A stretch of DNA of 64,000 nt from Clostridia bacterium (GTDB lineage Bacteria > Bacillota > Clostridia > TANB77 > UBA1234): positions 96,242-160,241 of the forward strand of contig JAFTQC010000022.1 of NCBI GenBank assembly GCA_017462965.1. Direction: 5' to 3'. Shown here piece after piece: positions 5,263 through 62,047 of this stretch. The notes below the pieces were generated by a model. It searched no databases. It was not told the DNA's origin and saw only the letters and a list, made by a program, of their open reading frames with translations. How positions within the stretch are numbered: the first letter of the stretch is position 1; each line of letters opens with the position of its first letter. Both the position numbers and the translations under genes were made by a program.

Positions 5263-6096
5263 ATGGCTATATTTAGGAATGTACACATTTCTTTTTGGGA
5301 AGATTCAAAAGTTCAAGAAGAAATGGACAAAGATGAAAGGTACTTTTTTCTCTATCTTTTAACGAATCCTCACACTAGTCAAATAGGTTGTTATGAAATA
5401 ACAATTAGGCAGATGGAATACGAAACGGGGTTAGATAAAAGTGAAATTGAACGATACATAGAGAGATTTGAAAATGAACTTGGAATTATAGAATATTCAA
5501 AAACGACAAAGGAACTTTTAATAAAAAATTGGTATAAATACAATTTTAACAAAAGTCCAAAAATGTTTTCACATATAAAAAAAGAAATACAAAATATAAA
5601 AAATATACCATTTAAAAACTATATAGATACCATATCTATACCCTATATATACGGTAACGCAATAAGAATAATAAAAGAACAAGAAAAAGAAGAAGAACAA
5701 GAAGAATCAAAGAATCAAAATGGTGACAGTTGTGTTGACGGCTTTTTGGAAGATTCGAATTGTGCTGATAAAGTTTTTATGTTTTATGAGCAAAACATTG
5801 GGACTGTAAGCCCATACACATATGAATTATTAAATAGCTATCGTGTTGATGGATTTAATGATGAGATATTGATTTATGCGCTGCAACTTGCTGTAAATGC
5901 AAATGCTAAAAATAATAATTACATAAAAGCTATTTTGAATAATTGGAAGAAGTCAAATGTGAAAACGTTAATTGATGCACAGAATGAGAATAAAAAGAAA
6001 AATATAGATGTTTTGAGAAAAAAAGAAAAACCTAACAATGCATATGAAGCAAAAGAAATTGGCAATGAGGATCTTAGTAAATTTTATTTAAACTGA
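5263..6096 (+). CDS. Phage replisome organiser / DnaD-domain replication protein
   Basis: N-terminal replisome-organiser-like region; C-terminal DnaD-like segment YEQNIGTVSPYTYELLNSY...AIL NNWKK. Confidence 0.7.
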   Translation: MAIFRNVHISFWEDSKVQEEMDKDERYFFLYLLTNPHTSQIGCYEITIRQMEYETGLDKSEIERYIERFENELGIIEYSKTTKELLIKNWYKYNFNKSPKMFSHIKKEIQNIKNIPFKNYIDTISIPYIYGNAIRIIKEQEKEEEQEESKNQNGDSCVDGFLEDSNCADKVFMFYEQNIGTVSPYTYELLNSYRVDGFNDEILIYALQLAVNANAKNNNYIKAILNNWKKSNVKTLIDAQNENKKKNIDVLRKKEKPNNAYEAKEIGNEDLSKFYLN

Positions 6097-12536: not shown

Positions 12537-12875
12537 ATGGCGAAGAAAATTGCGTATAAAGATTTAAAAGTTATAGAGAAAACATTTAAGGAAGTAGATA
12601 CGGATAAAAGCAAATTAGCTTTGTCATTAATTGATGAAGCTTACTTTTTAGGCGAAACACTGAGCAAATTGAAAAAGAAAATTTTAAAAGATGGAGTTGT
12701 AACTGAAATGTGTCGAGGCAGTTATTCTATTGATAGAGAAAACCCTGCATTGAAAAGTTATAATGCTTCATTAAAAAATTATCAAGCTTTATTAAAACAA
12801 ATTACAGATTTGCTTCCACCTGAAATTGAAATTCCTAAGGATGATGGATTTGACAGCTTCGGGGATGATGCTTAA
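12537..12875 (+). CDS. terS: Terminase small subunit (P27-like)
   Basis: Size, position between HNH and TerL, RBS aaaggaag. Confidence 0.65.
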   Translation: MAKKIAYKDLKVIEKTFKEVDTDKSKLALSLIDEAYFLGETLSKLKKKILKDGVVTEMCRGSYSIDRENPALKSYNASLKNYQALLKQITDLLPPEIEIPKDDGFDSFGDDA

Positions 12876-14575
12876 TGACATATATTGAAGAATATTATAA
12901 TTTTCTATTAGATAATCCTGAAAAAGCTTGCCATAAAGTTTTAACTGTCTATAAGAAACTTGTTGAAGATATAAAGAATCCTAAACAAGTTTCTTTTTTT
13001 AATAAAATCACAGAATCAAATGAAACGCATACTTTTATTTTTAATGAAAAACGTGGTAATAAACCAATAGAATTTATCGAAAGATTTTGCAAGCATTCGA
13101 AAGGTAAATGGGCTGGACGACCTGTTGAATTAGAATTATTTCAAAAAGCTTTTATACAAGCATTATTTGGCTTTATAGATAAAGATACAGGAATAAGAAA
13201 ATATAAAAAAGGTGCTCTGTTTATTGGACGTAAAAATGGTAAATCAACCATGGATAGTGGCCTTGCAAACTACATGCTTACTAAAGACGGTGAAGGCGGT
13301 GCAGAGGTTTATTCTGTGGCTACTAAAAAAGACCAAGCAAAGGTTGTATGGGACGAATGCAAGAGGATGATAAAAAAATCACCTGCACTCAATAAGCGAA
13401 TTAGATGTCTGGTTGGAGGTATTTTTTATGATGAAACAGAGAGCTTTTTGAAAGCACTTGCATCTGACAGTAATTCTTTAGATGGTTTGAATGCACATTT
13501 TGTAGTTGCAGATGAAGTTCATGCTTGGAAGGATAAAAATTTATTAGATGTTATGTATGATTCGATGTCTGCACGCGAACAACCGATGTTATTAGAAACG
13601 TCGACAATGGGAACTATAAGAGAATCTGTTTTTGATAATGAATATGAGTATTTTTCCGAAATAATTAAGGGGTATGAAGGATTAAGCGATATCGTAGATG
13701 AAACGGTTTTACCTGTTATATATGAGTTAGACAGTCCTGATGAATGGCAAGATGAGAGAAAATGGTATAAAGCAAATCCAGGGCTTGGAACAATAAAGAA
13801 AATAAAGGATTTACGAGATAAGGTAAACAGAGCAAAAAATAATCCTAACGAACTTCTTAATTTGCTTTGTAAAGATTTTAATATTAGGCAAAATGGACAA
13901 GACAAATGGTTAAGTTATGAAATAGCAAATAATGAAGCCGTATATGAAATGAAAGATATTCAAGATACGTATGCTGTTGCAGGTGTAGATTTATCAAGTA
14001 CTACAGACTTAACTTGTGCGACTATTTTAATATTTAAGAACGGTATTAAATATGTTTTGCAGCAATATTTTATCGCTGAAGCAAATCTGCAAAAGAAAAT
14101 TCAAGATGATAAGATTCCATATGATATTTGGGAAAAGAAAGGACTGGTTACATTATGTGAAGGCGCAAAAATTAATTATACAGACGTAACAGAATGGTTT
14201 AATCGTATGCATAATGATTATGAGATTTCAGCAATGTATGTAGGCTATGATCCGTGGAACTCTCAATATTGGGTTGAGGAAATGAAAGCATATGGTTATA
14301 ACATGATTGAAATTCGTCAAGGTGCAAAAACGATGTCAAATCCTATGAAAGAACTATATGCAGATTTGTCGGAGAAAAAAGTTAATTATAATAATAATCC
14401 GATATTAAAGTGGTGTTTAACAAATACATCAGTTAAACGTGATGAGAATGATAATATAAGACCTGTAAAAGGACATCAGCAACGTGCACGTATTGACGGT
14501 ACAGTTTCGCTTATAATTGCGTATTGCGTATTAGCTGAAAAATACACAGATTACATGAATTTAATGGAGGAATAA
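12875..14575 (+). CDS. terL: Terminase large subunit
   Basis: 566 aa; ATPase region ...GRKNGKST..., VVADEVH Walker B-like, C-terminal nuclease region; synteny. Confidence 0.85.
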   Translation: MTYIEEYYNFLLDNPEKACHKVLTVYKKLVEDIKNPKQVSFFNKITESNETHTFIFNEKRGNKPIEFIERFCKHSKGKWAGRPVELELFQKAFIQALFGFIDKDTGIRKYKKGALFIGRKNGKSTMDSGLANYMLTKDGEGGAEVYSVATKKDQAKVVWDECKRMIKKSPALNKRIRCLVGGIFYDETESFLKALASDSNSLDGLNAHFVVADEVHAWKDKNLLDVMYDSMSAREQPMLLETSTMGTIRESVFDNEYEYFSEIIKGYEGLSDIVDETVLPVIYELDSPDEWQDERKWYKANPGLGTIKKIKDLRDKVNRAKNNPNELLNLLCKDFNIRQNGQDKWLSYEIANNEAVYEMKDIQDTYAVAGVDLSSTTDLTCATILIFKNGIKYVLQQYFIAEANLQKKIQDDKIPYDIWEKKGLVTLCEGAKINYTDVTEWFNRMHNDYEISAMYVGYDPWNSQYWVEEMKAYGYNMIEIRQGAKTMSNPMKELYADLSEKKVNYNNNPILKWCLTNTSVKRDENDNIRPVKGHQQRARIDGTVSLIIAYCVLAEKYTDYMNLMEE

Positions 14576-14577
14576 GG

Positions 14578-15774
14578 ATGAAAGAAAAAAGAAGCTTATT
14601 CAATTTTATATTTGGAAAGAAAGATAAAAACCAAAATTTACATCAAGCATATTTGCAATTATTGAATGGATATAATCCACATTTTAGTACATATGGAACT
14701 GATACATATGATAGTAAAGTTGCAAGACAGTGTATTGATAGAATTGCTACTCATTGTGCAAAATTGCTGCCTAAACACATTAAAGATACTGTGAGTAATA
14801 ACATTAAAGGTGATATCAATTATATGCTAGGGAATCAACCTAATCCATTAATGTCAACATTCGATTTTATATATAAGATAATTTCAATGTTATATACAGA
14901 TTCAAATGCTTTTGTATATATAGCAAAAGACAAAAATGGGTATATAACAGGTTTCTATCCTGTATTAGCACTAAATTACGATTTGCTTCAAGATAATGAT
15001 GGAATTATTTATTTACAATTTAAGTTTGTAAACGGACAAACATATACAATTCCTTATTTAGAGTTAATACACTTAAGATTGTTTTTTAATAAACATGATG
15101 TATTTGGAAGTCATAATAAAGTTTTAAAAACGGATTTAGAAACGGCACATACTGCATCAGAAGGAATTAAGAATGCAATTAAAAGCTCGAATAATTTAAA
15201 AGGTATCATAAAATTTACAAATTCTATGTTAAAAGATAAAGATATTAAAGCAAGTAAAGATGCTTTTGTAAAAGACTTTTTAAGTTTGGAAAATGAAAGT
15301 GGAATAGCAGGTTTAGATGCTAAAGCAGAGTTTCAAGAAGTAAACATGAAACCTATTACACTAGATAAAGAACAATTGGCACAAGTAAATTATAATATAT
15401 TCGATTATTTTGGAATATCCGAGAATATTGTAAGAAATAAATTTACATCAGAAGAATGGAATGCTTTTTATGAAGGTGTAATAGAACCAAGAGCAATTCA
15501 AATGAGTTATGCATTTACAAATAAGATATTTAATTATCAGGCGCGTAAAGATGGACATAGAATTATATTTTCAACTAATAGGCTTCAATATGCAAAGATA
15601 GAAAGTAAAATAAGTTTATTGAAAGAAGCTGGAGCGTTAGGATTATTAACTAAGGATGAGGCAAGGGAAATAATAGATTTACATCCATTAGGCGGAGAAG
15701 AAGGAGCTAAAATAATTCAATCATTAAATAATATAGATAGTTCAATAGCAAATCAATATCAAGGAGGGAATTAA
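14578..15774 (+). CDS. Portal protein (HK97 family)
   Basis: 398 aa immediately after TerL; synteny. Confidence 0.8.
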   Translation: MKEKRSLFNFIFGKKDKNQNLHQAYLQLLNGYNPHFSTYGTDTYDSKVARQCIDRIATHCAKLLPKHIKDTVSNNIKGDINYMLGNQPNPLMSTFDFIYKIISMLYTDSNAFVYIAKDKNGYITGFYPVLALNYDLLQDNDGIIYLQFKFVNGQTYTIPYLELIHLRLFFNKHDVFGSHNKVLKTDLETAHTASEGIKNAIKSSNNLKGIIKFTNSMLKDKDIKASKDAFVKDFLSLENESGIAGLDAKAEFQEVNMKPITLDKEQLAQVNYNIFDYFGISENIVRNKFTSEEWNAFYEGVIEPRAIQMSYAFTNKIFNYQARKDGHRIIFSTNRLQYAKIESKISLLKEAGALGLLTKDEAREIIDLHPLGGEEGAKIIQSLNNIDSSIANQYQGGN

Positions 15775-16459: not shown

Positions 16460-17641
16460 ATGACTTTAAAACAAATTGAAGAAAGAAAAGCAGAACTTCA
16501 AAATAAAATTAGTGAAGCTAAATCTAAAGAAGAACTAGAAGAATTAAGAACACAAATAGAAGCTATTAATAAAGAGATTCCTGAAGAAGAAATCACAAAG
16601 GAAGAAGAAAGAAATTTAATAGCTGATACAGAAGAATTAGAAAAAAGAAATATAAAAAATTTAAAAATATTTAAGGAGGAAGAAAAAATGGAAGAAAGAA
16701 AATACACAATAGCTGATAAAGAATATAGAAGTGCATGGGCTAAAAAATTAATGGGATTAAGTGAAGATAAATTCACAGAAGAAGAAAAAAGAGCATTAGG
16801 AGATGCTGTTACAACAACAGATACAACATTTGTTCCATCAGCAGAGGGAACACAAGGAATTAATAATGGTGGGTTATTTATTCCAACTTCTGTAAGAACA
16901 GAGTTGTTAGAAATAATTGAAAAACAATCACCAATATTTAGAGATATAAGAAAATTACAAGTTGCAGGAAATGTTGATTTGCCTTATTTATTTAAAGCTG
17001 ATGATGCTGAATGGTATGCAGAAGTAACAGATACAAAGAACGAAGGTGCAGAATATAAAAATCTTCAATTAACAGGTTGGGAATTGGCAAAAGATGTAGT
17101 AGTTACATGGAAATTAGAAGAAATGTCAACAGAAAGTTTTATAGCATTTATTCTTGAAGAATTAGCTAATAAGATGGGTAAAGCATTAGTTAATGCTATT
17201 ATTTACGGCGATGGTGAAAATAAACCTACTGGAATAACACATGGTTTATCTGCTATCACAACAGGAGAAACTCCAGTTGATAATATCATTAATACTTACA
17301 AATCATTACCAGAAGATTCAAGAGTTGGTGCTAAAGCCTATATTTCAACAGGAGTTAATATTGAAATAGTAGGTTACAAAGATAAAAACGGAAATTATCC
17401 ATTCTTACAAGGTATGTCAACAAACAACTTAGTTTCTATCGAGCAAGATCCATATTTGAAAAATAATGATGTAGTAGTCGGCAATCCAAGATATTACATA
17501 CTAAACGAAGTAACACCAATTAGAGTTGAGAAAGAAAGAACTGTAAAAGGTAGAAAAACAACTTATGGTGGATATGCAATTTATGATGGTAAAGCTAAAC
17601 CAAATGCATTTGCATATGGTCAATATACACCAACAGTTTAG
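16460..17641 (+). CDS. Major capsid protein (HK97 fold), N-terminal delta/scaffold-like coiled coil
   Basis: 393 aa, charged coiled-coil N-terminus then capsid body; RBS aaggagg. Confidence 0.8.
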   Translation: MTLKQIEERKAELQNKISEAKSKEELEELRTQIEAINKEIPEEEITKEEERNLIADTEELEKRNIKNLKIFKEEEKMEERKYTIADKEYRSAWAKKLMGLSEDKFTEEEKRALGDAVTTTDTTFVPSAEGTQGINNGGLFIPTSVRTELLEIIEKQSPIFRDIRKLQVAGNVDLPYLFKADDAEWYAEVTDTKNEGAEYKNLQLTGWELAKDVVVTWKLEEMSTESFIAFILEELANKMGKALVNAIIYGDGENKPTGITHGLSAITTGETPVDNIINTYKSLPEDSRVGAKAYISTGVNIEIVGYKDKNGNYPFLQGMSTNNLVSIEQDPYLKNNDVVVGNPRYYILNEVTPIRVEKERTVKGRKTTYGGYAIYDGKAKPNAFAYGQYTPTV

Positions 17642-20073: not shown

Positions 20074-22261
20074 ATGGCTGAAATAAAAGGAATTACTGTC
20101 CAAATTGGACGGGGATACAACAGGTCTTGATAAAGCCCTTAAAGATACAAATAAAGAAATAAATACAACTCAAAAAGAGTTAAAAGAAGTTGAAAGACTT
20201 CTTAAATTAGATCCTAAAAATACAGAGTTATTAGCACAAAAACAAGAACTATTAGGAAAACAAATTGAACAAACTAAAACTAAAGTTACAGCATTAAAAG
20301 ATGCTCAAAAAAACGCGGATAATCAAATGAAAAATGGAGTGGAAATTTCTCAAACGCAGTATAGAAAATTGCAAAGAGAGATTGCTGCATCAGAAAATAG
20401 CATAGAGAAACTATCAAGCGAAGCTAAAAAATCAGAAGGTATCTTTGAAAATCTTGGTACTACTTTTTCAAAAGTAGGAAATGGAATGAAGTCTGTTGCT
20501 AGTTCTATTGGAAAGGGAATTGCATCAATAGGGGCCACGGCTGGCGCAGCAGTTACAGGAATAATAGCACTTGAACAGTCTACTAGGGAATATAGAAGTG
20601 ATTTGTCTAAATTAGAAACCAATACAAATCAAGCGGGGTTAAATTTTGGAAAAATGCAAGACAATTTAACTTCCTTGGTTGCAATAACAGATGAAACTGA
20701 CAGCTCAATTGAAGCACTTTCAAATTTGATGCAAACAGGTTTTGATGACGCAGGAATTGAGAAAACGCTAGATAGTTTGAGTGGTGCAATAATTGCATTT
20801 CCAGATACTTTGAAAATTGAAAGTTTAGCTGATGGCCTTCAAGAAACTTTAGCTACAGGAAAAGCAACAGGACAATTTGCTGAATTATTAGAACGTTCTG
20901 GAATGAGTTTAGATACTTTTAATGCAGGACTTGAAAAAGCAACTGAAAATGGAAAACAACAAGAATATGTATTAGAACAATTAGCAAAAACAGGAATGGC
21001 AGAAGTAAATAAGGCTTATAGAGAGGCAAATGTTAACCTATTAACTATAAAAGAAGCTCAGCAAGAATTTAATAATTCAATGGCTACATTAAGTACGATA
21101 ATGGAACCAGCTATTGCAAGTATAATGAGCTTTGGTGCAGAACTTTTAAATATTTTAACTAGTGCTTATGAAAGTGGAGGATTAGAAGGTTTAGTAGTAG
21201 CGATAGGAGATGTGCTTAATAGAATAGTGACTAAAATTGTTGAAAGTATGCCTAAGATAATAGAAATGGGAATGCAAATAATACAGGGCTTGCTCAATGG
21301 TATACAGCAAAATTTACCTCAAATAATGAGTTCAGCAGTAGAAATGATTAGTATATTTGTTAAGGCCGTTTTAGATATGTTACCTCAAATTATTGAAGTT
21401 GGAATGACAATAATAGCCCAGTTACTTATTGGAATTGCTGAGCAAATGCCAGAATTAGTTCCAGCAATAGTTGAATGTGTTTTGTTAATTGTTGAAACAA
21501 TACTTGATAATATAGATCAATTAATAGATGCTGGCTTACAAATTCTAATGGCATTAATTCAAGGTATTATAAATTCATTGCCATTAATAATTGAGAAATT
21601 ACCAGTAATAGTAACGCAAATATTTGAAGTAATAAACAACAATTTGCCTATTATTATTGAAGCTGGAATAACTATTTTATTAATGTTAATTCAAGGAATA
21701 ATAGAAACAATTCCAGAATTAGTAAAAGCAATTCCTCAAATTGTAACATCAATTGTAGATGGATTTAAGAAATTTTTTAGTACAATTTCTGATATTGGTA
21801 AAAACATCGTAGAAGGAATATGGGAAGGTATGAAAAACGCGAAGGATTGGTTGATTGAAAAAATACAAGAATTATGTTCTAATGCGTTAGGTGCTATAAA
21901 AAGATTCTTTGGAATTGAATCTCCTTCAAAAGTAATGAGAGATGAAGTTGGTAAATATTTGGCAGAAGGTATTGGTGTTGGATTTAATAGTAAAATGCCA
22001 AGTGTAATTGAAGCGATGAAAGAAAAACTTGCAACTGTGACAAGTGCTTTGAGTACAGAATTAAATTTTGCTGAAATACCACAAATTGAAGGAAATAAAA
22101 TAATAAGTGAAAATAGTTATGTGACCAAAAATTATACAAACACAATTGAAACAATTAGGCAACCAAGTAATATCGAATTAAGCTTAAATGGTATGAAATT
22201 TGCAAGAGCAATTATTCCTTCTCTAGATGAAGAATATGTGAGAATGGGGGTTAAGGTATGA
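20074..22261 (+). CDS. Tape measure protein; first 12 codons (MAEIKGITVQIG) are in a different frame from the rest (frame shift near 20107-20111)
   Basis: ATG 20074 + RBS gggaggg gives MAEIKGITVQIGRGYNRS*; main ORF from 20105 (DGDTTGLDKALKD...) 718 aa, coiled-coil and hydrophobic-repeat rich. Confidence 0.8.
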
Positions 22262-46272: not shown

Positions 46273-47232
46273 TTAGAAGACGTCAATAGGATGATCATTC
46301 TTCTTATTGGATGCGTCAGTGCTTACGGTTTCTTCGTGATACCGCAGTGCATCACGGACAATGCCTTTGGCACGTTCGCCTTGAATCAGGTCGATTGCCT
46401 CAGTTTTGCTAAGGCCTTCGTACATCTTGATGATTGTAGTGACGAGTTCAGGCATGAACTTGTGGTCGGAAAGGTCGCATGCGTGGCCTTTCATGAGCCT
46501 GCGCCATTCGGAAACTGTGCGCTCAGGATGGTGAGTGTAATAGTTGCCGTGCAGGATGATGTGGTAACAGTAGAACTTCTCCGATGCCATCTCAAGGCAG
46601 TCAGAAGCTGTTACGAGACGTACCGGATGAGGGTCGTTCTTACCAAACACGCTGCGAATCTCCCTGTCCGTCAGGTGGGGCGTGGGACATTCATCACCAA
46701 AAGTGAAGAGAAAACCTTTTTCGCCGCGCTTGTCGACACAGTCCATCTTGATGAACTTGCCAGCGAAGTACCACGGCAGGATGTAGCTTTCGTAGTGGTT
46801 GCCACCACCGCCTTCTTCGAGATAAATTTTCTCGAGCTGTTCGAGGATTCTGATGTCGGCCTCAAACTGAGTGACTTGAAGCGGTGCTTCGTCGTAGCCA
46901 GCAACGTCACCGACGCCCATGAACATGATGTGGGGATCGAAGTTGACGCTGTTATAAATGAGATTGGTCAGACGCGGGAACTCGGTTTTCACGAGACTGA
47001 GCAGGAATCGTGACATGGAACCAGTCACGTCCTCAGCAAAAATGATGCCGCGAGAATTCGGGCTTGTTGCAGAGTCACATGCTTCGCGAGGAAGCTTCAT
47101 TTGTGCCGGATCGAACAGGGGATGCATTTTGGTTTCCTTGAAAACCTGATTTGCAGTCATGACCCTGTCGATGGAACGAGATGCGTAAAAGTTCTTCATG
47201 TCGGAATGAGAAATTCGACCTCCACCACCCAT
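46273..47232 (-). CDS. von Willebrand factor A (vWA) domain protein
   Basis: MIDAS motif DVTGSMS (DxSGS). Confidence 0.65.
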   Translation of the reverse strand: MGGGGRISHSDMKNFYASRSIDRVMTANQVFKETKMHPLFDPAQMKLPREACDSATSPNSRGIIFAEDVTGSMSRFLLSLVKTEFPRLTNLIYNSVNFDPHIMFMGVGDVAGYDEAPLQVTQFEADIRILEQLEKIYLEEGGGGNHYESYILPWYFAGKFIKMDCVDKRGEKGFLFTFGDECPTPHLTDREIRSVFGKNDPHPVRLVTASDCLEMASEKFYCYHIILHGNYYTHHPERTVSEWRRLMKGHACDLSDHKFMPELVTTIIKMYEGLSKTEAIDLIQGERAKGIVRDALRYHEETVSTDASNKKNDHPIDVF

Positions 47233-48496: not shown

Positions 48497-49264
48497 TTAT
48501 TCTTCTTTTTCGGCTTCGGTAGCTTCAGCAGGCACATCAGAGACTACGAGATGTTCCATGGCGTATTTCACGCCTTCGACATAGCCTTGGCTGTGACCTT
48601 CGTCGAAACCGTATTCATACGTATCATCCATACCCTGGCCAAAGCCGGCTGTACGTCCTTCGACGTAACCTTCGTCGTATCCTTTCTTAAAACCGGCATC
48701 ATATGCCTCTTTCTCACGAGCAGCATCAGGATGCTTTTCGGCATCTTCCTTGGAGATATTGAATATTGCCATATTCTTCGTGGTGGTATACTCCTCGCAA
48801 AGGGATTTGATGCGATTTACTACATATTTGATGCCTTTGATGATCAGGAAAAGAATGCCGTAGAAGATGTAGTAGAGCAGAATAGTAGAAATGGCCAATA
48901 CAGTTACAAAAGCAGCATAGTACGAGAACATGCCCTTATCAGACTCAAAGTGATACGTTCCGTCGGGATTGAGCGTTGCTGTAGCACTTTCAAATGTGCT
49001 GCGAGCGTTGAGTTCCACGACAGAACCCTCCATCTCCAGAGTGTAGCGCGAGGTGTCGATGCCGACAGCAGGATTCTCGATGTACTCCCTGAGCTCGTTC
49101 TCACAAGCAAGGACTCCTTCATCAGTAGAAGGATAGACATTGCTGATGCAGAAAGAAAAAGAGAGGATCAGCGCGAGGCAAAACAAGATAGCTTTTTTGA
49201 GCTGTCCGCTGTACTTATGCCCCATGGTCTGAAGCGTCTGAGCGTTAGCCGACCGATTCTTCAT
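48497..49264 (-). CDS. Membrane protein with C-terminal GF.KGYDEGYVEG repeats
   Basis: Signal/TM, internal TM ILLYYIFYGILFLII, repeats AGFKKGYDEGYVEG/YGFDEGHSQGYVEG. Confidence 0.55.
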   Translation of the reverse strand: MKNRSANAQTLQTMGHKYSGQLKKAILFCLALILSFSFCISNVYPSTDEGVLACENELREYIENPAVGIDTSRYTLEMEGSVVELNARSTFESATATLNPDGTYHFESDKGMFSYYAAFVTVLAISTILLYYIFYGILFLIIKGIKYVVNRIKSLCEEYTTTKNMAIFNISKEDAEKHPDAAREKEAYDAGFKKGYDEGYVEGRTAGFGQGMDDTYEYGFDEGHSQGYVEGVKYAMEHLVVSDVPAEATEAEKEE

Positions 49265-51470: not shown

Positions 51471-51491
51471 AAACTTTTGTTCGTGATTTTG

Positions 51492-51554: not shown

Positions 51555-52187
51555 ATGAAAAAAACACAAGCGACTGATAAACAACAAAGGGTGCTTGATT
51601 ATGTTAAAGAACAAATAAAAAAGGATGGATATGCTCCGTCTGTTAGAGAGATTTGTAAAGCTTTAGACTTGAAATCAACTTCAACGGTTCATGGATATTT
51701 AGCTAGACTTGAAAAGAAGGGATTAATTCAAAAGGCTGCATTAAAGCCTAGAACTCTTAGAATTGTTGGTGCTGCCGGCGATGATGAAGAAAAAGGATTC
51801 TACACTTCAAAAGAGATGGTTGATGTGCCAATAGTAGGGAAAGTTACAGCGGGTATGCCAATACTTGCTGTGGAAAATATTGAAGATAGTTTCCCACTTC
51901 CAGTTGATTTTGTTGGAAATTCAGAATCATTCATGCTTAAAGTTAGAGGTGATAGCATGATTGATGCGGGAATATTAGATGGTGACTTGGTTCTTGTAAA
52001 AAAACAAAATACTGCACAAAATGGAGACATTGTTGTTGCTTTGATTGAAGATGAAGCGACGGTTAAAAAATTCTATAAAGAAAAAGGCTTTATTAGACTA
52101 CAACCACAAAACCAATTTATGCAGCCAATACTTGTTCCAACATGTACTATTCTTGGTAAAGTTGCTGGTGTTTTTAGAAAGTTATAA
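51555..52187 (+). CDS. lexA: LexA repressor
   Basis: [17 protein letters not shown]...; S24 motifs VRGDSM and K; RBS gggagg. Confidence 0.85.
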
Positions 52188-52245: not shown

Positions 52246-52311
52246 TTCATATTTTTTCAGTTAAGTAAAGAAAGAGACGACAAATTAATGTCGTCTCTTT
52301 TTGTAAATGTA

Positions 52312-53424
52312 TCAGAGTTTTTCGTCAGGGATTTCGCTTGCAAGCCGATAGTTGCTGTAATGAATGTCGTTGGTTACATCTTGCAATGCTTTGATGAAAT
52401 CGGGAATCTTGAATTTGGAAGCTTCAGAAGAAAGTTCTACCTCGAGAATAGCGACACCATCCCAGAAGGGATAGATATCGAGTTCGAAGTAGAGATTGTC
52501 GTGAATGAAGCAATAGCGTGTTTTCTGGATTTGACGCTTGCGACAATCACTTTGAACCAGCAAATCAAAGTATTCCTTTGCAGAAATTTTTCGTTCGTTT
52601 TCGATTCGTACGCCTTTGCGAATAGTACGCTTTTCAGTGTAGAAGAAAGTGTAGTCTCCGTCGATGCCGCGCATGCGGAGTCTTCTTTCCAAGCCAGAGC
52701 CATTATCACAAAGGTAGGTCTGAATGATTTCAGATTTGGAAAGATTGACGAACTTAGCAAGCTCATCAATATTCGGTTTCTTGATGAGAAATTTCTTCTC
52801 GATTTCAAGAGGTTCGGGTTTTCCAATGACTGCACAGATTTCAGCTATGAAACGCGTGATCTTCTTGGAAAAGCTGGTGCTGTTGTCGATGATGCGAAGG
52901 TGAGGATGACCCGTCCAGACTTTTTTAAGAGCTCTGTCAGCAGCGATGGCTTCTTCAACATTTTCATATCGAGCCTTGTTGCTCTTCATGTTTGCAATGT
53001 AAGCTTCCTCGGCACCATCAGCTGCAGTAATCATGTGAATCACGGCATCATAACGATTCATGAGAGAGTTAATCGTTTGTCCGTTTCTCCGCAGAATTTC
53101 CTCGACATCTTCAGGAGAGCTGTAAGCAAGTCCGTCAAGCAATCCTCGATCGTAGATGATTATGATGTTCTCGTCTTCGCACTTTTCAGCAGCTTCATTA
53201 AGGATAGCCTCCATATGAAGTTGCGTCCGGAAAAGCATGTCCTGGAATTCCACATTGCGGTATTCACGAAGCTTAATGCCACAGCCATACAGCGTGGTGA
53301 ATGTTTCAGGAGCGATGAATACCTTGAAGCCAAGAGCCGAAAGCTCTGGTTCAACACGTGCGAAAGCAGTTGTTTTACCCGCACACGGTCCGCCTGTAGA
53401 CACAATTCGATAGATTTTTTTCAT
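52312..53424 (-). CDS. P-loop NTPase (NadR/AAA_28-like) fused to CYTH (triphosphate tunnel) domain
   Basis: Walker A GGPCAGKTT, Walker B IIIYDRG; CYTH ExExK EIEKKFLI and Arg-rich strands; start at MKKIYRIV with RBS ggaggg. Confidence 0.6.
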   Translation of the reverse strand: MKKIYRIVSTGGPCAGKTTAFARVEPELSALGFKVFIAPETFTTLYGCGIKLREYRNVEFQDMLFRTQLHMEAILNEAAEKCEDENIIIIYDRGLLDGLAYSSPEDVEEILRRNGQTINSLMNRYDAVIHMITAADGAEEAYIANMKSNKARYENVEEAIAADRALKKVWTGHPHLRIIDNSTSFSKKITRFIAEICAVIGKPEPLEIEKKFLIKKPNIDELAKFVNLSKSEIIQTYLCDNGSGLERRLRMRGIDGDYTFFYTEKRTIRKGVRIENERKISAKEYFDLLVQSDCRKRQIQKTRYCFIHDNLYFELDIYPFWDGVAILEVELSSEASKFKIPDFIKALQDVTNDIHYSNYRLASEIPDEKL

Positions 53425-53543
53425 CGAGGCTTCCCTCCTATAAGAATTATTTGATCCAGCCAAAGTATATCAACCTCAAGGTTAAAAGTAAATATAGGAA
53501 TAAAAAATAAATATTGCCATAAAATAAAACAGAGGTGATGTTA

Positions 53544-53699
53544 TGTCTGAAAAAATTTTTAGGACAAAGGGTAAGGGAATCATAGAAGATGCAACGGAAT
53601 ATGGCGAATTTATAGCAACATTTGATGCTTGGATGACGCCAGAAGAACAAAAAAAGAGAGCACAGCATTTAGAAAATTTGAAGAAAAAAAGAAAATAAG
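53544..53699 (+). CDS. Small hypothetical protein (51 aa)
   Basis: My translation MSEKIFRTKGKGIIEDATEYGEFIATFDAWMTPEEQKKRAQHLENLKKKRK; RBS agaggtga. Confidence 0.35.
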
Positions 53700-53852: not shown

Positions 53853-54200
53853 TTAGTCACAATCGCATTCTTTGCAATCTGGCTTTAACTCACAGTCAAC
53901 AAACAAATCATCAATATGAGTATCTGCTGAAAAATCGATAGGTATTTCAACTTTCATCTTTTGAACAATAGTAAATTTGCAGTGACAATCATTCATATCT
54001 TTATGGCAATTCTCAGGTCTCTTTAGTGAAATTATTGGATTACCACAACATTCTGTTTTAATCTTTCCAACACAAACATTTGGCGTTGTTGTAACAGGAA
54101 GGCAAATTGTTAAGAATTTTTCGATAATTGAACAACAATTTCTGTCAAAGTCATGTTCGTGATTATGATCATGATGCTCATTTTTGTCATTTTCAAACAT
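53853..54200 (-). CDS. Cys/His-rich small protein (putative metal-binding)
   Basis: HHDHNHEHD and multiple CC/CxC motifs; RBS aaggagg. Confidence 0.5.
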   Translation of the reverse strand: MFENDKNEHHDHNHEHDFDRNCCSIIEKFLTICLPVTTTPNVCVGKIKTECCGNPIISLKRPENCHKDMNDCHCKFTIVQKMKVEIPIDFSADTHIDDLFVDCELKPDCKECDCD

Positions 54201-54389: not shown

Positions 54390-55877
54390 ATGAAGATATT
54401 ATTAACAACGTTAAATACGAAATATGTACATACGAATATTGCTTTGAAATATTTGTATGAAACGATAAGAGAAAAAGATGTTGCGCTAAAAGAATTTACA
54501 ATTAACGAACCGTTGGGAAAAATTTTAAGAGAGATTGTACGTGAAAATGCTGATGTAATCGCATTTAGTGTGTATTTGTGGAATATTGAAGAAATTTTGA
54601 AGCTTTCTGAGAATATTAAGAAGATATGTCCTGAGGTGAAAATAATTCTTGGTGGTCCCGAAGTTACATACCAAAGTGAAAAGATTTTAAAAGAAAATTT
54701 TTCGGTGGATTTTGTGATTTGTGGTGAAGGTGAAGAAACTTTCCCTAAACTTATTGACTTTGTTGAAGAACCGGATGTTGAAAAGAAAGATTTTTTGAAA
54801 TATGTTTCATACAGGGAAAATAATGAAATTCACGTTGGTGAAATTGGAATTGTTTGCGATACAAATAAAATTCCTAGAATTGCTGAAAAAATAGCCAAAG
54901 ATTATGATGGAAGAATTGTTTATATAGAAACCGTTAGAGGATGTCCATACAATTGTAGCTATTGCCTGTCTTCGACGATTAAAGGAATTCGTCCTTTTGA
55001 TATGGAGCGAGTAAAAGCAGAACTTTTGATTTTGATGAAAGCAGAGGTTAGATTAATTAAATTTGTTGATAGAACGTTTAATTATGATAAAAAACGTGCG
55101 CTTGAAATTTGGAGATTTTTGCTTGAAAACAATATTTCTTCAGAGTTTCATTTTGAAATTTCTGCGCATTTAATTGATGATGAAATTCTAGAGTTTTTTG
55201 ATACTGTTCCGGAAAATACTTTTAGATTGGAAATTGGCGTGCAGTCTACGAATCCTGAAACTATAAAGGCGATAAATAGAAATACAGATTTTGAGGTGAT
55301 TACAAAAGTTACAAAAAGAATCATGGAGAAAAATAATATAACCACTCATCTGGATTTGATTGCAGGACTTCCTTTTGAAGGATATGAAAGATTTAAACAA
55401 TCTTTTAATGATGTGTATAAATTAAGACCGACAGAGCTTCAACTCGGCTTTTTAAAGTTACTTAGCGGATGCCAAATTACGAATGAAAAAGAGCTTTATG
55501 AGTATAAGTATACGAGCTATCCGCCATATGAAATTTTAGAAAATAAATTTATTTCATTCGAAGAAATAACAAAATTGAAAAATGTAGAAGAAATGGTTGA
55601 CGTTTTTTATAATTCTGGAAGATATAAAAATTCATTAAAATTTGCGGAAGAAAAATTTAAAACGCCGTTTGAATTTTATTTTGAACTTTCGGTTTATGCT
55701 GAGAAAAATGGATACATGGAACGAAAAATAAGCGCCGAAGAATGGTTTGACGTCTTAGCAAGATTTTATTTTGAAAATAGATTTGAGGATTATGCAGATT
55801 TTTTAGAAAATCTGAAAAAAGATCATTTTAACAATTTTGGAAATAAGAGAAGAAGAGGATTATTTTTGTTTAAATAA
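54390..55877 (+). CDS. B12-binding-domain radical SAM protein (DUF4080-type C-terminus)
   Basis: CPYNCSYC radical SAM cluster motif; N-terminal B12-binding-like fold. Confidence 0.8.
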   Translation: MKILLTTLNTKYVHTNIALKYLYETIREKDVALKEFTINEPLGKILREIVRENADVIAFSVYLWNIEEILKLSENIKKICPEVKIILGGPEVTYQSEKILKENFSVDFVICGEGEETFPKLIDFVEEPDVEKKDFLKYVSYRENNEIHVGEIGIVCDTNKIPRIAEKIAKDYDGRIVYIETVRGCPYNCSYCLSSTIKGIRPFDMERVKAELLILMKAEVRLIKFVDRTFNYDKKRALEIWRFLLENNISSEFHFEISAHLIDDEILEFFDTVPENTFRLEIGVQSTNPETIKAINRNTDFEVITKVTKRIMEKNNITTHLDLIAGLPFEGYERFKQSFNDVYKLRPTELQLGFLKLLSGCQITNEKELYEYKYTSYPPYEILENKFISFEEITKLKNVEEMVDVFYNSGRYKNSLKFAEEKFKTPFEFYFELSVYAEKNGYMERKISAEEWFDVLARFYFENRFEDYADFLENLKKDHFNNFGNKRRRGLFLFK

Positions 55878-55969: not shown

Positions 55970-56779
55970 ATGACGGACAAGTTGGAACTGGTGCGGAAAT
56001 ACCACGAGGAAAATGCTCTCGAGCGTCTTTTTGTTGGGAGCAAGGAACTGGAAATCAAGCTCATGCACATTTGTGGCATGGCGGACATCGCGATGGAAAT
56101 CGCAAGTGTTTACAAGGCAAATTTTGACCGTGAGCTTCTGAAGCTCTGTGCTTTGCACCATGATGACGGTCGAGTGCTGCAGTACAAGTATCTGGGCAAT
56201 TTCAACGACAGGGAGCTTTCCCACAATGAACTCGGAGCTATGGCTCTGAACCAGTGGTGCATCAAGAATAAGATTACGCCGGATAGCGCTATTCATGTGC
56301 TTCGCGACGTGATGATGTATCATGGACGCTTGGCTCTTTGCGAATGCAGAGTCACGTGGGAATCTCGGCCGTATATCGAAATTATCAGTGATGCTGATGA
56401 TATCGAGAATGGCTGCATCGGGGCGGTCGGCTATCTTCTGAATGAATGCCGGACTGATGCAAAGGGGTACAACACTACGCATCCTGAACATTTCGGCAAA
56501 ATCAAGCCGGAGTTGTGGGCATTTTACGAGCTTGGACAGTGGTTCGACAAGATGAAGTACTGTGAAAGCTATGCGGAATACGTACTCTTTGCAGCCACTC
56601 TGGCAATGAAGTCCATCAAGAAGTATGGGTGGATCGCCAAGAAGGCTATGCTGAAGCCCAGCTATGGCTACGCAAGTGCTCTTCAGGGCTACGAAGACAT
56701 TTTCTCGCAGGTGATGTCTTACGAGGATGCCAAGCATGCTATCAATGTTCTGCGCAAGGCATGCACCGTCGAAGAGTAA
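55970..56779 (+). CDS. HD-domain phosphohydrolase (GC-rich)
   Basis: LCALHHDDGR HD motif. Confidence 0.6.
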   Translation: MTDKLELVRKYHEENALERLFVGSKELEIKLMHICGMADIAMEIASVYKANFDRELLKLCALHHDDGRVLQYKYLGNFNDRELSHNELGAMALNQWCIKNKITPDSAIHVLRDVMMYHGRLALCECRVTWESRPYIEIISDADDIENGCIGAVGYLLNECRTDAKGYNTTHPEHFGKIKPELWAFYELGQWFDKMKYCESYAEYVLFAATLAMKSIKKYGWIAKKAMLKPSYGYASALQGYEDIFSQVMSYEDAKHAINVLRKACTVEE

Positions 56780-56881: not shown

Positions 56882-57325
56882 TTAGTGAGGCAACATGACA
56901 AACTTGCGCTTCCCTGAAGGCGTTTTGAACTCTGCGATATGAAGTTCTAAAAGCCCGTTGTTATAAAATACATAGGGAAGATAGCCAGTAATATCATTTT
57001 GTTTGCAGACTTCAGAAATCCACTCGTTGTGGTATCCTTTGCGAAGTGCATCCACAATTTCATGTACGAATATCAAGCCGTTTTCTTCGGCCATTTTTTT
57101 GATTTCGTCAGTGGTGATGAGATTGAATTGCGGTGTAGGTGCGAGCATCCGATAAGACGTTCCTTCAGAAGATTTCTCTTCTAAAATATCGATCACAAGG
57201 TCTGTGCCGTTGAAGTATGCATGCGTGCAGGCATCTTCTTTGCAAAAGCGAGAGTGTTCTGTGCAAATGTTGTTCCAACCGAAAATAACGACCGGTTCGG
57301 TTAAAACATGTTTTTCTATGGCCAT
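56882..57325 (-). CDS. Hypothetical protein
   Basis: 147-aa ORF; RBS aaggaggtc. Confidence 0.5.
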   Translation of the reverse strand: MAIEKHVLTEPVVIFGWNNICTEHSRFCKEDACTHAYFNGTDLVIDILEEKSSEGTSYRMLAPTPQFNLITTDEIKKMAEENGLIFVHEIVDALRKGYHNEWISEVCKQNDITGYLPYVFYNNGLLELHIAEFKTPSGKRKFVMLPH

Positions 57326-57550: not shown

Positions 57551-57997
57551 ATGAGATTGTCTGAGGTGATAGAAGAATATATCAAAGCTTTAATTGCTGA
57601 TAGTGATGATTTTGTAGAGTTTGGTAGAAATGAACTAGCTGAATATTTCAATTGCGTGCCATCTCAAATTAACTATGTAATAAGTACGAGATTTAGTCCA
57701 GAAAGAGGTTATTATGTAGAAAGTCGAAGAGGTGGCGGTGGTAATATCAAAATTAAAAGAATAGATATTACTAAAGATCGATACATTATGCATTTAATAA
57801 ATTCTCTTGAAGAAAGTTTATCTCAACAAGAAGCGGGAATAATTATTAATAACTTAATTGATTATAATGTGATAGATAGTAAAACTGCTAAACTTCTTAA
57901 AGTTGCTACAAATGATAAAGTTTTAGGACTTCCTAGAGAATATAGAGATTTAGTTAGGACACGAATTCTGAAGAATATGTTGATAAATTTAATATAA
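57551..57997 (+). CDS. ctsR: Transcriptional repressor CtsR
   Basis: MRLSEVIEEYIKALIADSDD...RRGGGGNIKIKRI. Confidence 0.9.
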   Translation: MRLSEVIEEYIKALIADSDDFVEFGRNELAEYFNCVPSQINYVISTRFSPERGYYVESRRGGGGNIKIKRIDITKDRYIMHLINSLEESLSQQEAGIIINNLIDYNVIDSKTAKLLKVATNDKVLGLPREYRDLVRTRILKNMLINLI

Positions 57998-58005
57998 GTA
58001 GGAGA

Positions 58006-58557
58006 GTGATTTTTATGAAATGTCAAAATTGTGGAGAACACGAGGCAAATATTAAGTATATGCAAATGATAAATGGAGAAAAAGATGAGATGTATCTTTG
58101 TGAAAAATGTGCAAAGGATATGAAAATTGATATGAATTTTGATATGCATTTTGGATTTAATAATATCTTTTCTTCGTTATTTGGTGGAGAAACTATTGTA
58201 AAACCAGTTGAGCTTTCTGATGAGCTTTCTTGTGACGTTTGTGGAATGAAATATGATGATTTTGCTACAATCGGAATGCTTGGTTGTGAAAATTGTTATA
58301 AAGTTTTTAACAGACGTTTAGATAATGTTATTAAAAGACTTCATGGAAGCAACCGTCATGTTGAATTATCTCATCATCAAAGACCTAAAGTTAACAGAAA
58401 GAAAGATGCTAATAAAGATGTTAAATCAGAAATTGCCAAGCTTAAAGAAGAAATTGAAAAATGCATTAAAGTTGAGGATTACGAGCAAGCTGCGATACTA
58501 AGAGATAAAATAAAAATTTTAGAAAAGTCATTGGATGAAAGAGAAAGAGGTGAATAA
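58006..58557 (+). CDS. mcsA: McsA (zinc-finger/UVR-domain activator of McsB)
   Basis: CQNCGEHEA...CEKCA and CDVCG...CENCY zinc fingers; UVR motif YEQAAILRDKIKILEK. Confidence 0.85.
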   Translation: MIFMKCQNCGEHEANIKYMQMINGEKDEMYLCEKCAKDMKIDMNFDMHFGFNNIFSSLFGGETIVKPVELSDELSCDVCGMKYDDFATIGMLGCENCYKVFNRRLDNVIKRLHGSNRHVELSHHQRPKVNRKKDANKDVKSEIAKLKEEIEKCIKVEDYEQAAILRDKIKILEKSLDERERGE

Positions 58558-58559
58558 GC

Positions 58560-59561
58560 ATGAGTTGGTATTTTGAAAATGGTCCAGAATCAGATGTCGT
58601 AGTTAGTACAAGAATTAGATTTGCGAGAAATTTGAAAGGATATAAATTTACGTCAGTAGCTGATGAAACAGAACTTAAAAGGGTTTTAGAAAATTTTAAA
58701 GGAAATGGAATGGTTTCAGGACTTCAATACATTAAGCTTGATGATTTAGATGAACTTATGAGAATGAGCTTAGTTGAAAAACATATAATTAGTAGAGATA
58801 TGCTAAAACAAAAAGATGCTGCTGTTTTACTTAATACAGCAGAAGATGTTTGCGTAATGCTAAATGAAGAGGACCATATACGAATTCAAGTTTTAAAACC
58901 TGGATTAGAATTAGAGCAAGCATTAAACGATGCACAAAAAATAGATGATGAAATTGATGAAAAATTAGAATATGCATATAGTGATTTGTATGGTTTCTTG
59001 ACAACTTGTCCAACTAATCTTGGAACAGGTCTTAGAGCATCGGTAATGTTACATTTGCCAGCGCTTAGAATGACAGGAAAAATTGGAAAAGTTATAGATG
59101 TTATTAATAAGGTAAATATAAACGTTAGAGGTGTATACGGTGAAGGAACTGATGCAATTGGAGATATGTATCAAGTTTCGAATAAAATAAGTTTAGGATT
59201 AACAAACTTGGAAATAATTAATAATGTTAAGTCAGTTGTATATAAATTGATAGAACAAGAAAGAAATGCACGTGAATTTTTAAAGTCAAGAGGAATTGAA
59301 TTTGAAGACAAACTTTACAGAGATTTTGGTGCATTATCATGCGCTAAAAAACTTACTTATGCCGAATGTGCAAAGTTAATTTCAATGGTTAAACTTGGCG
59401 TTTCAATGGGAATTATAACAGAAATTGATTCGAGAAAAATCAACGAAATCAACGTCGTTTCAAAATCGGCAACACTTCAAAAATGCATAAAAGAAACTGT
59501 AAGTGCTAAAGAATTAGACATAAAGCGAGCAGAGTTGATACAGAAAATAATACAGAGGTAA
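58560..59561 (+). CDS. mcsB: Protein-arginine kinase McsB
   Basis: Phosphagen-kinase-like CPTNLGTGLRASV motif; operon context. Confidence 0.85.
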   Translation: MSWYFENGPESDVVVSTRIRFARNLKGYKFTSVADETELKRVLENFKGNGMVSGLQYIKLDDLDELMRMSLVEKHIISRDMLKQKDAAVLLNTAEDVCVMLNEEDHIRIQVLKPGLELEQALNDAQKIDDEIDEKLEYAYSDLYGFLTTCPTNLGTGLRASVMLHLPALRMTGKIGKVIDVINKVNINVRGVYGEGTDAIGDMYQVSNKISLGLTNLEIINNVKSVVYKLIEQERNAREFLKSRGIEFEDKLYRDFGALSCAKKLTYAECAKLISMVKLGVSMGIITEIDSRKINEINVVSKSATLQKCIKETVSAKELDIKRAELIQKIIQR

Positions 59562-59566
59562 ATTCG

Positions 59567-59603
59567 AAAAAAGGACAAAAGCCCCGTCCCCTTGTCCTTT
59601 TTT
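59567..59603 (+). terminator. Rho-independent terminator (repeat-family hairpin)
   Basis: aaaaaaggacaa-aagccccgtcccc-ttgtcctttttt. Confidence 0.6.
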
Positions 59604-59620
59604 CAAAAAGGAGGTTTGGT

Positions 59621-62047
59621 ATGGTTTATAAGTTTACGAATAGAGCTGAGAGAGCGATTGCGCTGGCGCAGGAGGTTGCAGGCGAGTTTGGTCACAATTA
59701 TGTAGGGACTGAGCATCTGCTTTGTGGTCTTGTAAGAGAAGGAACTGGACTTGCGTATAAGGTTCTTGAAGAGCAAAATGTAACTGAAGAAAAAATAGAA
59801 GAGTTGATAGAAGAGTTGATTGGTAGAGATGAGCCTTTAAGTATTCCGCCTGATGGATTTACTCCAAGGACGAAACGAGTTTTTGAAACGAGTTTTATCG
59901 AAGCTAAAAGACTGAATAATAATTTTATTGGTACAGAACATCTACTTCTTGGAATTTTAAAAGAAGGGGATAGCGTAGCTTCTAGAATTATTGCAGAACT
60001 TGGTGTTGATATTCAAAAACTATTTTCGACTTTAATAAAAATGCTAACAGACGAAAAGAGTGGTAATACAATAACTCACAAGAAGAATCCTAATAATCAA
60101 ACTCCAACATTAAATCAATTTGGAAAAGATTTGACCTTTGAGGCAAGTGAGGGAAAACTTGATCCGATAATTGGAAGAGAAGAAGAAATTGATAGAATTA
60201 TTCAAATTTTGAGTAGAAGAACAAAGAATAATCCTTGTTTGATTGGTGAACCTGGTGTTGGTAAAACAGCTGTGGTAGAAGGACTTGCTGAAAAAGTTGT
60301 TGCTGGAGAAGTTCCTGAAAATTTGAAAAATAAAAGAGTAGTAACGTTAGATATTTCTTCAATTGTGGCTGGCGCAAAGTATAGAGGAGACTTTGAAGAA
60401 CGACTAAAGAAGTGCCTTCAAGAAATAAAAAAAGCTGGCAATGTAGTTTTATTTATTGATGAAATTCATACGATTGTTGGTGCTGGTGCTGCAGAAGGGG
60501 CAATTGATGCTGCTAATATTTTAAAGCCTTTACTTGCAAGAGCTGAGATTCAGGTGATTGGTGCAACAACTTTAAATGAGTATAGAAAATACATTGAGAA
60601 GGATGCGGCTTTGGAAAGAAGGTTTCAACCAGTATTAGTTGGCGAACCGACTACAGAAGAGGCAATTCAAATTTTGGCTGGAATAAGGGATAAATACGAA
60701 GCGCACCATAAAGTGAAAATAACGGATGATGCTATAAAAGCTGCGGTTGAGTTATCTTCAAGATATGTTAATGATAGATATTTGCCAGATAAGGCAATCG
60801 ATTTGATGGATGAAGCTGCATCAAGAGTGAAATTGCAATCTCTTACTGCTCCAAAAGAAGTTAAGAAAATTGAAGAAAAAATTGCTGAAATTGTAAAAGA
60901 AAAAGAGGATGCAATAAACACTCAAAACTTTGAAAAAGCTGCAAAACTTAGAGATAAAGAGCAAAAAGAAAAGGAAAAATTAGAAAAAGTAAAATTAGAA
61001 TGGACTCAAAAAAATCAAATTGCGACAACTAATGTTACTGAAAATGAAATTGCAGAAGTGATTTCAAAATGGACCAATATTCCGGTAAATAAACTTACTG
61101 AAGCTGAAACTGCAAAACTTAAGAATTTAGAGGAAGAACTTCATAAAAGAGTAATTGGTCAAGAGGTTGCAATCACTGCAGTTAGTAAGGCTGTAAGAAG
61201 AGGAAGAGTTGGACTTAAAGATCCAAAGAGACCGATTGGTTCATTTATTTTCCTTGGACCAACAGGTGTTGGTAAAACTGAAACTTGTAAAGCGCTTGCA
61301 GAATGTTTATTTGGCGATGAAAATTCGATGATAAGAGTTGATATGTCCGAGTACATGGAGAAGCATACAGTTGCAAAGCTTATAGGTTCACCTCCTGGAT
61401 ATGTTGGCTATGAAGAGGGTGGTCAATTAACGGAGAAAGTTAGAAGAAAACCTTATGCGGTAATTTTATTTGATGAAATTGAAAAAGCGCATCCAGATGT
61501 ATTCAATATATTACTTCAAATCTTGGAAGACGGACGATTAACTGATTCTCAAGGAAGACTTGTTGATTTTAAAAATACAGTTATAATTATGACGTCAAAT
61601 GTAGGAGCAAGAAACATTACAGAGCAAAAAACAATAGGTTTTAATAATGCGGAAAATAAAGAAAAAAATTATGAGCAAATAAAAAATGATGTAATGTCAG
61701 AATTGAAAAAAGCCTTCAGACCAGAATTTTTGAACAGGGTTGATGAATTAATAGTATTCAAGCCTTTGGATGAAATGGAAATAGAGAAAATTGTAGAGAT
61801 AATGATAAGAAATTCTACAGGAAGACTAGCTGAAAGAAACATTACTATTGAAGTTACAGATGCAATGAAAAAACACATTGCTAAAAAAGGATTTGATCCA
61901 GCATATGGCGCAAGACCGCTTAGAAGAGCGATACAATCACTAATTGAAGACACATTAGCAGAAGAAATTTTGGATGGAAAAGTTCAAAATGGAAACAATG
62001 TGGTGATAGATTTTGTGGATGAAAAAGTCAGTGTGAAAGTAAAATAA
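59621..62047 (+). CDS. clpC: ATP-dependent Clp protease ATP-binding subunit ClpC
   Basis: Two AAA+ modules (GEPGVGKT twice), N-terminal Clp repeats, UVR-like linker. Confidence 0.95.

Follow-up and report, generated by a model that had tools for sequence, protein, structure and literature searches.

Triphosphate tunnel metalloenzymes (TTMs) of the CYTH family are ancient and widespread, and few of them have a known physiological substrate. NeuTTM of Nitrosomonas europaea (NE1496, PDB 2FBL/3TYP), a stand-alone CYTH protein, is a specific inorganic triphosphatase for which Tyr-28 and Lys-52 have been proposed as the catalytic dyad (PMC3440374). Drosophila TTD14 (CG30118) carries a P-loop domain followed by a CYTH domain and has been characterised as a trafficking factor that binds GTP and phosphatidylinositol 3-phosphate/phosphatidic acid (PtdIns(3)P/PA; PMC4624897), while Arabidopsis TTM1 and TTM2 (PDB 7Z67) have a P-loop kinase and then a TTM on one chain. 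The ribosylnicotinamide kinase (RNK) domain of the regulator NadR (PDB 8X7F, 6GYE) falls in the AAA_28 family. Here we analysed a window of 64,000 nucleotides from a Clostridia bacterium (contig JAFTQC010000022.1, positions 96,242 to 160,241) in which one gene encodes a 370-aa protein joining an AAA_28 domain to a CYTH domain. With a probability of roughly 0.6, we read this protein as a bifunctional enzyme of nucleotide or phosphoanhydride metabolism, encoded by a monocistronic chromosomal gene.

An earlier note, made from the DNA letters alone, had described an N-terminal NadR/AAA_28-like nucleotide kinase or ATPase domain with the motifs GGPCAGKTT and IIIYDRG, followed by a CYTH domain, and this observation was confirmed, domain order included (residues 6-186, then 205-366). 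Pfam AAA_28 (PF13521) matches the protein at 60.6 bits (cutoff 27; E 2.8e-16) over profile positions 1-162 of 164, and all 50 aligned relatives match the same family, the best at E 1.5e-29. In the alignment of these 50 sequences, which reaches down to 43% identity and underlies all conservation figures given here, T10, G11, G12, P13, C14, G16 and K17 of the Walker A motif are invariant, as are D92 and G94 of the Walker B motif, with R93 at least 90% conserved; N149, R152 and E154 of the NKARYE segment are also invariant, and a WTGHPH motif (residues 170-175) is among the invariant or near-invariant positions. The NKARYE segment is a putative LID, judged by its place within the kinase fold. A DRX motif, which here overlaps Walker B, characterises P-loop kinases of the TMPK type (PMC12995831). 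Walker A, Walker B/DRx, LID and a kinase-type fold are all present in the N-terminal domain, and the conserved positions in the alignment are those of a P-loop kinase rather than a generic ATPase. Orthology to dTMP kinase was considered and rejected, since scores against thymidylate and deoxynucleoside kinases fell far short of the family cutoffs (20.5 versus 27 bits and 21.8 versus 83 bits). The RNK domain of NadR shares 12-16% identity with the window protein, which is not NadR itself: it lacks both the helix-turn-helix (HTH) and the nicotinamide mononucleotide adenylyltransferase (NMNAT) domain, and has instead a CYTH domain fused C-terminally to the kinase.

The C-terminal CYTH assignment was borderline for this single sequence and clearly positive for its family. 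Pfam CYTH (PF01928) was not reported at E<=1 in a scan of the full-length protein, and the C-terminus scanned alone reached 20.2 bits (E 5.7e-4) against a gathering cutoff of 23.2. By comparison, 13 of the 50 relatives match Pfam CYTH at E<=1e-3 (best 4.2e-8), the family profile finds NeuTTM with E 1.3e-11, and the predicted fold is an eight-stranded antiparallel beta-barrel, or tunnel; the AF2 model of the whole 370-aa protein has a pLDDT of 91.9 and a pTM of 0.88. The ExExK, arginine-pair and ExE motifs named in the earlier note proved to be conserved. Basic residues R248, R250, R252, K265, R273, K301 and R303 and acidic residues E246, E275, E277, E314/D316 and E328/E330 are conserved, the Arg/Lys ladder to at least 90%, and pairwise alignment places the tunnel residues opposite R39, R41, K52, K85, R87, E114 and E116 of NeuTTM, with E328/E330 facing E114/E116 and Y237 and K265 facing Tyr-28 and Lys-52. 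The glutamates of the C-terminal ExE are metal ligands in CYTH enzymes. By these alignments, the catalytic residue set of the CYTH domain is complete and conserved. The whole 150-aa NeuTTM aligned with the C-terminal domain at 30-34% identity, and the two share the ExExK motif, the Arg/Lys ladder, the ExE and the Tyr28/Lys52 equivalents; NeuTTM stands alone, whereas the window protein carries CYTH as the C-terminal half of its fusion to a P-loop kinase, with a predicted inorganic triphosphatase (PPPase) activity. The CYTH family also takes in class IV adenylyl cyclases, and YpAC-IV and plant 'cyclases' are among the fold matches, so that fusion of the kinase to a nucleotidyl cyclase of class IV (CyaB-like), yielding a cyclic-nucleotide signal, was considered; we regard a cyclase as very improbable.

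For the bifunctional enzyme, we infer the substrates, the activity of both sites and the coupling between them as follows. The AAA_28 domain would be a phosphotransferase of the NadR-RNK, thymidylate-kinase or deoxynucleoside-kinase class. Its Walker A lysine and DRG motif would bind Mg-NTP, and the gamma-phosphate would pass, beneath the arginine-bearing LID, to a small acceptor resembling a nucleoside or nucleotide. The C-terminal domain would be a catalytically intact TTM, most like NeuTTM, in which R248, R250, K265, R273, K301 and R303 may hold the triphosphate moiety and E207, E209, E314/D316, E328 and E330 the metal or metals, while a Tyr237-Lys265 pair, the counterpart of Tyr28-Lys52 in NeuTTM, may activate water. 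The terminal phosphate would then be hydrolysed off inorganic triphosphate (PPPi) or off a nucleotide or metabolite bearing a triphosphate, and the presence of both sites on one chain may couple the making and the removal of a phosphorylated small molecule. Recurrent guanylate-kinase fusions among the homologues, together with the NUDIX, phosphoribosyltransferase (PRTase) and tmk neighbours of one orthologue, point to nucleotide metabolism. The earlier note's label of a 'nucleotide or polyphosphate signalling module' is fair but unproven. In a polyphosphate/triphosphate module the TMPK-like domain would use or make short polyphosphate, as PPK2/PPK3 do, and the CYTH domain would remove PPPi, a possibility to which we give little weight.

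Several points weigh against the bifunctional enzyme. The Pfam CYTH score lies under the gathering threshold for this sequence, and the HTH-less form has no conserved operon partner in the 80 genome loci described below. TTD14, so far alone among proteins of this layout in having been studied, has no reported enzyme activity (PMC4624897), and AtTTM1, the one fusion of kinase and TTM studied structurally, has an inactive TTM that regulates the kinase (PMC9582702).

The joining of AAA_28 to CYTH is not unusual, and defines a family of more than 1000 clusters at 50% identity. A word-indexed search returned more than 5600 homologues, the closest at 89% identity, and when 1.84 billion representatives of such clusters were scanned exhaustively with HMMER, 6737 proteins reached E<=1e-3, of which 1170, each standing for a cluster, reached E<=1e-30; among the top 150 matches the alignment spans the full length in nearly all. 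Purifying selection on the family is evident. Database names of the homologues are generic, such as 'AAA family ATPase' and 'CYTH domain-containing protein/thymidylate kinase'. We sampled 80 genome loci, nearly all from gut and rumen Bacillota metagenome-assembled genomes, and recovered 74 homologues from them: 33 (about 45%) have an extra N-terminal XRE-type HTH and 41 are HTH-less. An N-terminal guanylate kinase is fused to the core in three proteins that are about 49% identical to one another (P0160, P0388 and P0389). Other rare layouts are CYTH-AAA_28-CYTH (P0228 and P0248) and AAA_28 followed by a degenerate and then an intact CYTH (P0179). A link to (p)ppGpp through a RelA_SpoT fusion (P0123) was dropped, because the fusion was seen once only, on a single contig.

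The earlier note had also proposed a survey of gene neighbourhoods. When the flanking open reading frames (ORFs) of the 80 loci were clustered all-against-all, the sole recurrent neighbour was the S component of an energy-coupling factor (ECF) transporter, a protein of about 180 aa (PF07155, E 1.5e-14) whose gene lies 3-128 bp away on the same strand in 12 of the loci; an HD_4 neighbour occurred in just 4 of the 80. The S component adjoins 11 of the 33 HTH forms (L003, L005, L015, L017, L019, L025, L034, L036, L045, L049 and L051) versus none of the 41 HTH-less forms (Fisher p 4.6e-5), and the HTH-less gene of the window likewise has no adjoining S component. The HTH form with its S-component gene resembles NadR/PnuC or BirA/BioY in pairing a regulator with a transporter. 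No riboswitch that might give a clue to the substrate was found in the 12 S-component loci, and against NCBIfam the S component gave nothing beyond sub-threshold RibU/FolT-like matches.

These HTH forms bear on our main rival explanation, in which the protein works as a ligand sensor or switch and not in metabolism. On binding a nucleotide (GTP or ATP, for example) or a triphosphate, one domain or both would shift conformation, as in NadR, AtTTM1 and TTD14; the HTH-less protein would either need a partner in order to act or be a paralogue, trimmed of its HTH, of the fused regulators. The frequency of the HTH among the homologues and its association with the S component favour such a role, as do the regulation of the AtTTM1 kinase by its TTM domain (PMC9582702) and the binding of GTP by TTD14 (PMC4624897). 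However, a DNA-binding domain is missing from the window protein, all catalytic residues of both domains are conserved, which pure binding would not need, and sensing can coexist with catalysis, as it does in the enzymes NadR and BirA. We consider a sensor or switch unlikely, with the polyphosphate-kinase and cyclase readings above, and the SOS and defence readings below, weaker still. A related and tentative proposal takes the AAA_28-CYTH pair as the enzymatic or sensory core of NadR-like bifunctional regulators, with the window gene as its stand-alone enzyme. Such a core might, equally tentatively, steer how a nucleoside or vitamin precursor is taken up and phosphorylated, and in view of the guanylate-kinase fusions this compound may be related to guanine. 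It is likewise conceivable, if doubtful, that in these regulators the CYTH domain reads out or destroys the triphosphate form, and that the window gene is the bacterial counterpart of animal TTD14.

Comparison with the eukaryotic fusions showed a close likeness in layout to TTD14 and a distant one to the plant proteins. By its published description (PMC4624897), TTD14 has the P-loop domain, the CYTH domain and the motifs GxPxxGKT and hhhhDxG in the order found in the window protein, with 79 aa versus 77 aa between Walker A and Walker B and about 206 aa versus about 194 aa from Walker A to the start of CYTH; it is eukaryotic and about 100 aa longer. For the plant structure 7Z67, Foldseek aligned 385 columns at 11% identity with a TM-score of 0.28 and an rmsd of 20.9 Å, so the domain arrangement differs. 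The kinase of AtTTM1/2 is of the uridine/cytidine-kinase type and not AAA_28, and no PRK/UCK Pfam match was found in the window protein; the tunnel of AtTTM1 lacks catalytic competence, and plant TTM1/2 carry a C-terminal membrane anchor whereas the window protein ends 4 residues past the CYTH domain. Assignment to the plant TTM1/2 type was thus rejected on kinase family, anchor and arrangement, and the plant fusion is most likely independent of the bacterial one. Since a JBC paper on plant TTMs describes kinase-bearing TTMs as unique to plants, the bacterial family seems to have been little noticed in that literature, though databases already catalogue it.

Focusing on the gene itself (Table 1), the longest ORF reading starts at TTG 53463, a codon that falls within a -10-like hexamer, while ATG 53424 is also the annotated start on an identical public metagenome contig of 159 kb, giving the same 370 aa. 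A second promoter candidate lies at 53446-53473, found, like the tabulated one, by consensus scan only. The hairpin between this gene and lexA is likely a bidirectional terminator common to both. Because it has its own ribosome-binding site, promoter-like site and terminator, the kinase-CYTH gene looks monocistronic. An antisense ORF of 403 aa across the gene matches no family and was rejected as a shadow ORF.

Table 1. Features of the kinase-CYTH gene, its neighbour lexA and the prophage, in window coordinates
Feature	Position	Strand	Basis
CDS, 370 aa, AAA_28 P-loop kinase-like + CYTH/TTM	52312..53424	-	ORF, public gene call, homologues, AF2
AAA_28 domain, residues 6-186, NadR-RNK/thymidylate-kinase-like fold	52867..53409	-	Pfam match
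Walker A/P-loop TGGPCAGKTT, residues 10-19	53368..53397	-	conservation
Walker B with DRx kinase motif IIIYDRG, residues 88-94	53143..53163	-	conservation
Putative LID segment NKARYE, residues 149-154	52963..52980	-	conservation and position
CYTH/triphosphate tunnel metalloenzyme domain, residues 205-366	52327..52812	-	family profile, fold, motifs
ExExK signature EIEKK, residues 207-211	52792..52806	-	E207, E209 and K211 at least 90% conserved (50 sequences)
C-terminal acidic ExE, E328-V-E330	52435..52443	-	both glutamates at least 90% conserved (50 sequences)
Ribosome-binding site AGGAGGG, 8 nt ahead of ATG 53424	53433..53439	-	read from sequence
Promoter-like TTTACT-17-TATACT with TG extension	53464..53492	-	consensus scan only
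Hairpin, 12-bp stem, A-run and T-run on flanks	52271..52300		between the two stops
lexA (neighbour, outside the module)	51555..52187	+	Peptidase_S24 E 7.5e-36, LexA_DNA_bind E 1.4e-20, 210-aa gene call
Prophage DnaD-like replisome organizer	5263-6096	+	PHROGs
Prophage large terminase	12875-14575	+	PHROGs
Prophage portal	14578-15774	+	PHROGs
Prophage major head protein	16460-17641	+	PHROGs
Prophage tape measure	20105-22261	+	PHROGs

Two features remarked on in the earlier note, the convergent lexA and the gene's elevated GC (44% versus a window mean of 33.9%), held up, and with a prophage at about 5-30 kb of the window they could suggest an SOS-regulated gene or a phage-defence or mobile-element function. 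In relatives at 68-79% identity the gene order is kept (ctsR-mcsA-mcsB-clpC, a B12/radical-SAM DUF4080 gene, a Cys-rich ORF, a 51-aa ORF, the gene and lexA), whereas a 70% orthologue sits elsewhere, among NUDIX, ABC-F, PRTase and tmk genes and away from lexA, and the lexA neighbourhood was not found in any of the 80 distant loci. No exact GAAC-N4-GTTC site occurs in the 64-kb window, where one-mismatch sites number 17 versus 17.7 expected by chance, and no LexA-type operator was found upstream of the gene (53425-53560) even at one mismatch. Because it is conserved only in relatives and no operator lies 5' of the gene, the lexA adjacency is lineage synteny without evidence for a functional link and looks incidental. 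The PADLOC search gave no match; full-length copies number 0 in 50,697 phage records and 1 in 72,556 plasmids, the latter on an 815-kb replicon, and phage genomes hold stand-alone CYTH only, PHROG 6660 matching the C-terminal half of the protein. The prophage lies more than 20 kb from the gene. As for composition, GC at third codon positions (GC3) is 0.46 in the gene versus 0.15-0.20 in housekeeping neighbours, and syntenic orthologues have 0.22-0.41 versus 0.13-0.24 in their own neighbours; because most share the bias and stand in the same slot at 68-79% identity, a recent horizontal island was rejected as its cause. We consider an SOS, defence or mobile-element function highly improbable.

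The only Cheo-box-like site near lexA is the one-mismatch AAACTTTTGTTC at 51471-51482 (+), just 5' of the lexA promoter, and the LexA operator of this lineage may differ from the Bacillus consensus. GC3-rich segments form a mosaic in the AT-rich genome (42000-49300, 52312-53424 and 55970-57325), with values of 0.59 for a 319-aa ORF (46273-47232), 0.52 for a 255-aa ORF (48497-49264) and 0.61 for an HD/HDIG protein (55970-56779), against 0.15-0.20 for lexA, ctsR and clpC. The HD gene and a 147-aa ORF (56882-57325) look like an insertion, since they are absent from the syntenic loci L086 and L087.

Elsewhere in the window, strong PHROGs matches mark the prophage at about 5263-30000 (+), with approximate limits. 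Divergent from the kinase-CYTH gene is a 51-aa ORF (MSEKIFRTKGKG...KKKRK; 53543-53698, +) with ribosome-binding site GAGGTG, which is called as a gene and has a conserved position in related genomes (49-55 aa); it has no Pfam match. A 115-aa Cys/His-rich ORF (53853-54200, -), with an N-terminal HHDHNHEHD and many CxC/CC pairs, is divergent from the B12-binding radical SAM/DUF4080 gene (54390-55877, +), and the pair is syntenic, with versions of 98-111 aa; this ORF matches no family, and its product may bind metal or be the precursor of a modified peptide. The canonical ctsR-mcsA-mcsB-clpC stress operon (57551-62047, +), 4 kb from the gene, is the syntenic anchor in related genomes.

Overall, the gene is one ordinary member of a large, catalogued and biochemically unstudied family of gut Firmicutes proteins, to which the lexA neighbourhood adds nothing, and the earlier interpretation is supported. 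With more than 1000 clusters in which an intact small-molecule kinase site and an intact CYTH site are rigidly coupled, the family is well suited to the search for a physiological CYTH substrate. Its HTH/ECF branch in particular is a reasonable target, paralogues with an HTH and a linked transporter give genetics a way in, and the role of the bacterial protein would give a biochemical hypothesis for Drosophila TTD14.
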